In this document: positions 60,087 to 60,369 of the stretch, piece after piece
How the letters are laid out: every line of letters begins with the position of its first letter
Numbering within the stretch: the first letter of the stretch is position 1
IMG/VR virus record: IMGVR_UViG_3300031857_023573
Location: 161,080 to 225,079 of that record
From: a virus
Lineage: Duplodnaviria; Caudoviricetes
DNA: 64,000 bases
Reading direction: 5' to 3' (one strand)
Notes under the pieces: model-generated
Seen by the model: only the letters and a program-made list of their open reading frames with translations
The model's database searches: none
Told to the model about the DNA's origin: nothing
Program-made: the position numbers and the translations under genes

Positions 60087-60369
60087 GCCGGGATGGTGAA
60101 ACAGGTAGACACGCGGGACTCATTAGGGTCGTTTTACTAGAAATGGTAAAATAGTAAGGTGTAAATTCAATGAACGGTGTAAAATCCCAACGTTGAGCGA
60201 AATTCCGATAAGGAAGACGTGCAGAGACTATAATCACCTACCTAAGTCAGAAATGATAAGGTAAAGGCATAGTCCAGACTACAAACAAGAAATTGGCGAT
60301 GAAAATCGTAGTAGTAAGTAAAATCCCGTGGACATTGCGTCCGTGAGGGTTCGATTCCCTCTCCCGGTA
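60087..60369 (+). tRNA. tRNA-Leu(UAA), exons 60087..60120 and 60319..60369; CCA not encoded
   Basis: acceptor GCCGGGA/TCCCGGT, GGTAGAC D-loop, anticodon stem CGGGA/TCCCG with spliced loop CT-TAA-AA, long variable arm GGAC/GTCC, GAGGG-TTCGATT-CCCTC T-arm. Confidence 0.92.
60121..60318 (+). mobile_element. group I intron (198 nt, no ORF) inserted after U33 of tRNA-Leu
   Basis: P1 GACUC/GGGUC with U.G at the splice site, P2 GAAA hairpin, P3 AGGUG/CACCU, P4 UUCAA/UUGAG, P7 GACUA/UAGUC within GCAGAGACUA and AAGGCAUAGUCC, terminal G. Confidence 0.9.

Follow-up and report, generated by a model that had tools for sequence, protein, structure and literature searches.

Introduction

Group I introns of tRNA genes have been sorted into four classical classes, Leu.3Ug, Arg.5Ug, fMet.2Ug and Ile2.5Ug, all of subgroup IC3, to which a survey of bacterial and archaeal assemblies has added 17 more from bacterial genomes (Williams 2020, 10.1101/2020.01.27.920355). 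That paper makes no mention of phages. The cyanobacterial tRNA-fMet intron (fMet.2Ug) lies after U33 (Biniszkiewicz et al. 1994, as cited in Williams 2020, 10.1101/2020.01.27.920355, and in PMC8450103). For phages, a 2014 review places all introns known at that time in protein-coding genes, despite the many tRNA genes that phages carry (Hausner, Hafez and Edgell; PMC3984707). In full-text searches of the literature, no phage tRNA gene with a group I intron came up. We considered as a precedent the 'tRNA-Stop interrupted by 2.5 kb' of Vibrio phage pVa5 and set it aside, since its report does not present it as a group I intron. According to its own paper, tRNAscan-SE 2.0 is not designed to detect introns of this kind (PMC8450103).

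Here we describe a tRNA-Leu(UAA) gene in a 64-kb stretch of phage DNA (hereafter the window) and conclude, with a probability of about 0.9, that a group I ribozyme of IC3 type, 198 nt long, separates its U33 from its U34 and is spliced at 60120/60319. This reading draws on two tRNA halves, on a covarying ribozyme core, on relatives that locate the two splice sites, and on excised linear and circular RNA of the intron of a related metagenome contig (L242).

The interrupted tRNA gene

The window has a G+C content of about 30%, and phage-type genes surround the tRNA locus. An earlier note on this DNA had proposed a tRNA-Leu(UAA) in two folding halves split by a 198-nt group I intron, and a direct reading of the sequence finds both halves and the insert exactly at the positions that it gave (Table 1). 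Run with introns allowed (-i), ARAGORN reports a tRNA-Leu(taa) at 60087-60370 with the intron i(35,198), that is 198 nt after gene position 34. When the exons are joined at 60120/60319 they form a clean type II cloverleaf with a 7-nt loop containing U33, a long variable arm and A73, which the program again calls tRNA-Leu(taa), in agreement with the two halves as proposed. The 3' exon does not encode CCA. The acceptor stem carries an unusual G1.U72 pair, which is common to the two uninterrupted phage homologues described below (L244 and L245).

As the earlier note had expected, standard finders pass over this gene: with default settings ARAGORN returns no tRNA gene in the whole 64-kb window, and an Rfam search at the gathering score returns no match in the whole window. 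In a 551-nt Infernal search with an E-value threshold, the check that the note had suggested, the Rfam model Intron_gpI (RF00028) matches 60111-60300 over its full length with 49.6 bits and an E-value of 1.1e-11, which is 0.4 bit below the gathering score of 50, a cut-off that is operational and not a structural feature. This match and the covariation described below bear out the assignment of the insert to group I. The matched region has a G+C content of 39%. The gene escapes both the default ARAGORN run and the gathering-score Rfam search, so that inventories of phage tRNAs are incomplete, as are the arguments on codon usage that rest on them.

Megablast against phage records gave a single unrelated 45-nt match and no near-identical sequence, and an exact-pattern search of IMG/VR found no match for either the 5' junction of the window or the P1-P2 pattern of L242.

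Table 1. Features of the interrupted tRNA-Leu(UAA) locus in window coordinates. The window row is one column off in P3 of alignment A1, and window coordinates were mapped separately.
Feature	Position	Strand	Support
5' exon of tRNA-Leu(UAA): acceptor 5' strand, D arm, anticodon stem 5' strand, C32, U33	60087..60120	+	ARAGORN with introns allowed; spliced cloverleaf; compensatory changes in acceptor and D stems of L242
P1 hairpin: exon GACU and intron C60121 with guide sequence 60126-60130	60117..60130	+	Infernal alignment; anchored P1 search
198-nt group I intron (IC3 type), without ORF	60121..60318	+	RF00028 match; alignment and covariation; RNA contigs
P2, 8 bp, GAAA tetraloop 60140-60143	60132..60151	+	6 of 6 counted pairs with compensatory changes; whole helix replaced in L242
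P3 5' strand AGGUG, partner 60235-60239	60157..60161	+	6 of 6 pairs of P3 covary in the family
P4 (60167-60172 with 60191-60196) around P5 (60176-60177 with 60186-60187)	60167..60196	+	RNAalifold; covariation
P6 (60197-60199 with 60218-60220) and P6a (60203-60206 with 60211-60214)	60197..60220	+	RNAalifold; covariation
P7 5' strand GACUA, partner 60270-60274, pseudoknot with P3	60226..60230	+	covariation count
P3 3' strand CACCU	60235..60239	+	covariation; window helix mapping
P8, GAAA loop 60250-60253	60240..60262	+	3 of 4 outer pairs with compensatory changes
P7 3' strand UAGUC	60270..60274	+	covariation count
P9 domain: outer 60278-60282 with 60311-60315; inner hairpin 60296-60309, GAAA loop 60301-60304	60278..60315	+	RNAalifold; covariation
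Terminal G (omega G), last intron base	60318..60318	+	same column as the terminal G of all 49 relatives; end of contig X26; circle junction of X28
3' exon: U34 A35 A36 (anticodon), A37, A38, anticodon stem 3' strand, long variable arm, T arm, acceptor 3' strand, A73	60319..60369	+	ARAGORN; intron-less L244 and L245 with the same joined arm
A/T-rich hairpin followed by a T run	60374..60410	+	sequence read; not called by a rule of three G-C pairs

The ribozyme core

Alignment A1 holds 49 distinct short introns of phage tRNA genes, drawn from the listed motif matches described below, with the window on top. The terminal G falls in one column in all rows, the junction bases are invariant, and the GAAA loop of P9 is invariant in all 49 introns; P7 is likewise fixed in four of its pairs, the fifth alternating between U-A and A-U (26 versus 23). 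From this alignment RNAalifold recovers P2, P3, P4, P5, P6, P6a, P8 and the P9 domain, with compensatory changes in 32 of 43 pairs.

We recounted the pairing over 11 helices, from P2 to P9 and with P7 added as the P3/P7 pseudoknot, P1 being assessed separately. Standard pairs are formed in 98.0% of the cells, versus 77.2% in shuffled alignments and 26-41% when the partners are slid by one to three columns, and compensatory changes are found in 32 pairs across the counted helices. The covariation score is 0.570 against 0.178 in the shuffles, and none of 500 shuffles attains any of the observed measures. The core, with its P3-P8 and P4-P6 domains and the P3/P7 pseudoknot, is present, and its pairing lies far beyond chance. 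The P2-P9 pairings that had first been read in the single sequence are thus supported by covariation in 49 phage tRNA introns, and the GAAA tetraloops noticed at the same time are found in L2, L8 and L9.

At 198 nt the intron is as compact as had been supposed, that is, of about the size of the Azoarcus intron. Its compactness, its place in the anticodon loop, the presence of P2, the GAAA loops on P2 and P9, and a 16-base P7/P9 motif in common with intron-split tRNA genes of cyanobacteria and alphaproteobacteria point to an intron of IC3 type. This label comes from resemblance to known introns and from Williams 2020, and no model specific to the subgroup stands behind it.

The splice sites

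ARAGORN takes many artificial junctions as some tRNA, and for this reason we used instead a junction rule under which the anticodon loop must have 7 nt, the 5' exon must end in U and the intron in G. The sole junction that passes is 60120/60319, giving the loop CT/TAAAA. The same 5' site is singled out by P1: a search anchored on the U.G pair forms the helix at 60120 only, with four pairs on the exon side and one on the intron side (G60117-C60130, A60118-U60129, C60119-G60128, the wobble U60120.G60127 at the 5' splice site, and C60121-G60126), two other nearby T positions having no comparable partner, and the Infernal alignment likewise gives U60120 a G as its partner in the first helix. A short P10 of 2-3 bp is possible between the first three bases of the 3' exon and 60123-60125, as read from the sequence. 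The earlier note had held that only a cut after U33 yields the 7-nt loop CU-UAA-AA, that P1 carries U.G at the 5' splice site, and that the intron ends in G; the junction rule and the P1 search both lead to the first, the wobble flanked by C-G, A-U and G-C pairs is as it had described, and G60318 shares its alignment column with the last base, a G, of all 49 relatives.

In the phage relatives the guide sequence varies with the site class, being GGGTC for 33/34, GAGT for 34/35 and GCAGC for 35/36. This tracking of the site class by the guide lends independent comparative support to the 5' splice site. Moreover, the uninterrupted phage tRNA-Leu(UAA) genes L244 and L245 read CTTAAAA, an anticodon arm that exactly equals the predicted ligation product. 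The ligated exons would be expected to read ...GGGACU/UAAAAUCCCG across the junction.

Related introns in phage and bacterial tRNA genes

A 16-base P7/P9 motif used as query matched at least 118 IMG/VR contigs. Among the matches listed, ARAGORN -i combined with the junction rule gave 88 intron-split tRNA genes with a single junction solution. The commonest class among these listed matches is the classical 34/35 site of Leu(UAA) (CTT/AAAA, 54 of the 88), and the others are Asn(GUU) at 35/36 (CTGT/TAA, 13 genes), Leu(UAA) at 33/34, the window included (CT/TAAAA, 5), CAU tRNAs at 33/34 (CT/CATAA, 3), Asn(GUU) at 33/34 (CT/GTTAA, 2), and Arg(UCU), Thr(UGU), Lys(UUU) and Ala(UGC) with one each. By these counts, group I introns in phage tRNA genes are common among IMG/VR contigs.

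Several split genes are misnamed by ARAGORN, for example as 'Thr ggt' for Asn GUU, or as 'Phe' or 'SeC'. One IMG/VR phage contig (L108) carries three intron-split tRNAs, GUU at 35/36, Leu UAA at 34/35 and CAU at 33/34 (112-384, 5359-5644 and 5850-6132, respectively). Phage tRNA-Leu introns of 670-964 nt are frequent among the IMG/VR loci L005-L121, and from their length they probably contain an ORF, such as one for a homing endonuclease. An uncultured 'huge phage' of 735 kb (LR756501.1, a record without any annotation) has a tRNA-Leu(UAA) with a 205-nt group I intron at U34/A35 (L001:1340-1630, at about 190.2 kb).

The same 16-base motif matched at least 120 bacterial contigs, including cyanobacterial and alphaproteobacterial intron-split tRNA genes. 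Among the bacterial matches listed there are 105 intron-split tRNAs, with the classical cyanobacterial Leu(UAA) introns at 34/35 among them. By the same junction rule, initiator-type CAU tRNAs of Cyanobacteria (Scytonema, Nostoc, Oscillatoria and Allocoleopsis) read CT/CATAA, which is the 33/34 site. In contigs of metagenome-assembled genomes, tRNA-Leu introns at 33/34 occur with the anticodon UAA in one assigned to Lewinella (L214) and with CAA in two that are alphaproteobacterial (L209 and L212).

The phage contig L242, from a metagenome, is syntenic with the window and about 80% identical to it over 2 kb upstream. Its tRNA-Leu(UAA) gene is likewise split after U33, by an intron of 201 nt. 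Between the two tRNAs, the acceptor pair 5-68 and the D-stem pair 10-25 have both changed from G-C in the window to A-U in L242. Between the two introns, the 3' 168 nt are about 98% identical, and P2 is wholly different yet fully paired (L242:1916-1945 versus 60121-60151), a pattern that suggests either that this peripheral helix was swapped by recombination or that it undergoes very fast compensatory turnover. These compensatory changes indicate that the tRNA and the ribozyme are both under selection. The two uninterrupted tRNA-Leu(UAA) genes of IMG/VR (L244 and L245) are about 80-84% identical to the joined exons of the window, and a homologue of the window gene at 61872-62525 adjoins the tRNA of L245.

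Outside tRNA genes, the window intron has partial core similarity to introns in the capsid gene of a marine phage and in the DnaB gene of a crAss-like phage. The former is a deep-sea podophage (KT997847.1) whose capsid gene, annotated as separate 'capsid protein' CDSs, contains two group I introns (L002:735-915 and 1444-1624) that match RF00028 with 78 and 76.9 bits. In the latter (OQ198718.1, Kolpuevirus; L003:338-2631), the annotation divides the DnaB helicase into two parts that flank a GIY endonuclease gene, and the gap shows core similarity to the window intron but does not reach an E-value of 0.001 with RF00028.

Intron RNA in environmental samples

DNA of the phage is present in lake, freshwater and drinking-water metagenomes of many studies. 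For RNA, we compared the region 59950-60480 with four river and freshwater metatranscriptomes, in the form of assembled contigs and not of raw reads, and the matching contigs cover the intron only. Two contigs (X25) are 100% identical to the intron of the window and represent internal pieces of it (60145-60239 and 60210-60290). A 202-nt contig (X26) comprises the whole L242 intron of 201 nt, preceded by one additional letter, and its 3' end lies exactly at the base matching 60318; the additional letter could be the added guanosine, which we do not claim. A further contig (X28) reaches 60318 and then resumes at base 3 of the L242-type intron, going back 168, a join that looks like a circularised group I intron minus its first two bases. 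X26 and X28, from separate studies, both put the 3' end of an excised RNA at the G predicted to end the intron; these exact-end contigs are of the L242 allele and not of the window's own.

Predicted splicing and use of the tRNA

The tRNA-Leu(UAA) gene begins 8 nt past the stop codon of an upstream ORF, and the A/T-rich hairpin that follows it is probably the terminator of the tRNA transcript. Directly past this hairpin lies a near-consensus sigma-70-like promoter on the same strand (60420-60449; TTGACA, 18 nt, TATATT; 11 of 12 matches), ahead of a MoxR-type ATPase gene (60485-61594). Given the short distance to the upstream ORF, and the hairpin and T run with a promoter-like site after them, the tRNA is probably part of a longer transcript.

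Within this transcript the intron would fold into P1-P9, and free guanosine would attack after U60120, held in U.G wobble with the guide (GGGUC). The 3' end of the exon, thus freed, would in turn attack after the terminal G60318, joining the exons into the loop CU-UAA-AA and releasing the intron as a linear RNA able to circularise. The host would be expected to trim the tRNA ends and to add CCA, giving a tRNA-Leu(UAA) that would read UUA and UUG. We infer that splicing would proceed without the help of a protein, and the tRNA is likely to be used in translating TTA-rich phage genes. TTA is the commonest Leu codon in the ORFs of the window (36%, and 47% together with TTG), which fits a phage-supplied tRNA-Leu(UAA).

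About 1 kb upstream of the tRNA, the window encodes a 2H phosphoesterase with a 'Swiss Army Knife' 2H-SAK domain (58281-59024, plus strand; Pfam E-value 4.6e-21), which may be an RNA end-healing or repair enzyme.

Alternative readings of the locus

The features described above could also belong to a tRNA pseudogene that holds a decayed and non-splicing relic, and the Rfam score slightly below the gathering score, together with the fact that the spliced tRNA is not found among RNA contigs that cover the intron only, would agree with this. We consider it highly improbable, since all core helices are intact and the junction bases match the invariant columns of the family, since L242, about 80% identical, retains both the tRNA and the intron via compensatory changes, and since its intron RNA is found excised and circular in two studies. 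Least credible of all is a real intron with another junction, for instance the canonical U34/A35, or within a tRNA of another anticodon such as CAA or CAU. The unspliced text does read CT-CAT, and the leniency of ARAGORN towards artificial junctions would accommodate such a choice; however, the base after U33 is a C, so that there is no U34 ahead of the intron, and the remaining T positions have no P1 partner and would require an intron ending in A. The 3' side is equally constrained by the terminal G aligned in all 49 relatives, by the RNA contig end and circle junction at 60318, and by the intron-less homologues that read CTTAAAA.

Splicing at 60120/60319 by a group I ribozyme is therefore the reading that we retain, and the question of whether the ribozyme acts on its own bears on its mechanism. 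The fold could be real and still require a phage or host protein, chaperone or maturase-like, for a useful rate of splicing, as the A/U-rich composition of the intron (39% G+C in the Infernal match) and the shortness of P1 and P10 might suggest. This seems to us unlikely, although less so than the two readings above: the three GAAA tetraloops that stabilise the IC3 fold are present and the intron has no ORF, and classical IC3 tRNA introns of similar size, those of Azoarcus and Anabaena, self-splice in vitro.

Origin of the U33 site

The intron had been described in the earlier note as independent, which holds only in part, for it is homologous to other phage and bacterial IC3 tRNA introns. In both a quick tree and a more careful one in which the P1 columns were left out, the window forms a well-supported clade with L242 and L114, the latter being an intron at 33/34 of a CAU tRNA. 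The quick tree nests this clade within the phage Leu 34/35 introns (SH-aLRT 97), and the careful tree places it with phage Asn 35/36 and CAU 33/34 introns. In neither is it sister to the cyanobacterial fMet introns, which lie in the other main branch of both trees.

In AU tests, grouping the window clade with bacterial CAU 33/34 introns costs 73.5 log-likelihood units (p-AU 0.02) and grouping it with bacterial Leu 34/35 introns gives p 0.003, while a grouping with phage Leu 34/35 introns is not rejected (p-AU 0.10); all three tests are confounded, since none of these comparison groups is itself a single clade. A single clade of all phage Leu and CAU 33/34 introns is not rejected either (p 0.47).

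As the two trees disagree, the source is uncertain between a canonical Leu intron retargeted by one base and the U33 intron of another tRNA. The U33 site may have arisen within phage tRNA-Leu(UAA) by a one-base retargeting of the guide, from GAGU to GGGUC, in an intron at U34/A35, and not from a U33 intron of another tRNA. The nesting in the quick tree, the grouping with phage Leu 34/35 introns that the AU test does not reject, and the 3' half of the intron, which is about 80% identical to that of the Leu 34/35 intron of the 735-kb phage, all speak for such a step. Against it stand the placement in the careful tree, the fact that the closest relative outside L242 among the matches listed (L114) sits in a CAU tRNA, the long branches and the confounded AU tests, and on balance we regard it as possible but somewhat improbable.

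Equally tentative, and to be taken as a conjecture that we would not favour at present, is the broader idea that IC3 introns in phage tRNA genes are numerous and for the most part unreported, and that they hop among the neighbouring loop sites 33/34, 34/35, 35/36 and 36/37 and among tRNA species via small changes of the guide; the window clade would then be a natural one-base switch within tRNA-Leu(UAA). If this were true, ribozyme retargeting could be studied as it happens in phage tRNA clusters, and phage tRNA counts by standard finders would be systematic underestimates. The locus comes with a natural comparison set, namely a relative that shares the intron, homologues that lack it, and introns at the canonical site of the same tRNA, and also with excised and circular RNA from the environment, so that bench experiments on splicing and on site retargeting are easy to design.

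Comparison with known systems

A close counterpart in tRNA species and ribozyme family is the cyanobacterial and plastid tRNA-Leu(UAA) intron (Leu.3Ug, IC3), which has the same core and a similar 3' end (...AGUAAG). It lies one base further on, at U34/A35, and its guide pairs with ACUU, whereas that of the window pairs with GACU. The contrast that the earlier note had drawn between the cut after U33 and the canonical Leu site therefore stands as a difference of one base in position, but the U33 site is not new, being known from fMet.2Ug and Leu.2Ug. The former has the insertion site of the window, after U33, in a different tRNA. With the latter the agreement is closer: the window intron has the features that define Leu.2Ug, in that it interrupts a tRNA-Leu between the second and third bases of the loop, follows a U and ends in G, and in the seed row Eba21.Leu.2Ug the P1 strands GGACUC/GGGUCC show the same site and guide sequence as the window (Williams 2020, 10.1101/2020.01.27.920355). 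The site is thus already catalogued. The Eba21.Leu.2Ug intron is longer than that of the window, with large insertions in P6 and P8.

The Azoarcus intron resembles that of the window in its size, in being an IC3 intron with GAAA in L2 and L9, in its location in an anticodon loop and in forming circles after splicing (PMC13168695). It differs in lying after U36 and on a bacterial chromosome, and its self-splicing and structure are experimental, whereas those of the window intron are predicted. With the group I introns of phage protein genes (T4 td, nrdB, Twort, SPO1 and Bastillevirinae) the window has in common the phage host and the group I ribozyme; those introns interrupt mRNAs, often with homing-endonuclease genes, whereas the one described here lies in a tRNA and has no ORF.

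The locus is a clean and well-supported case of a group I intron in a phage tRNA gene, and it reveals no new mechanism. Its insertion site, its guide sequence and its kind of intron are already catalogued in bacteria; what is new is the phage host.
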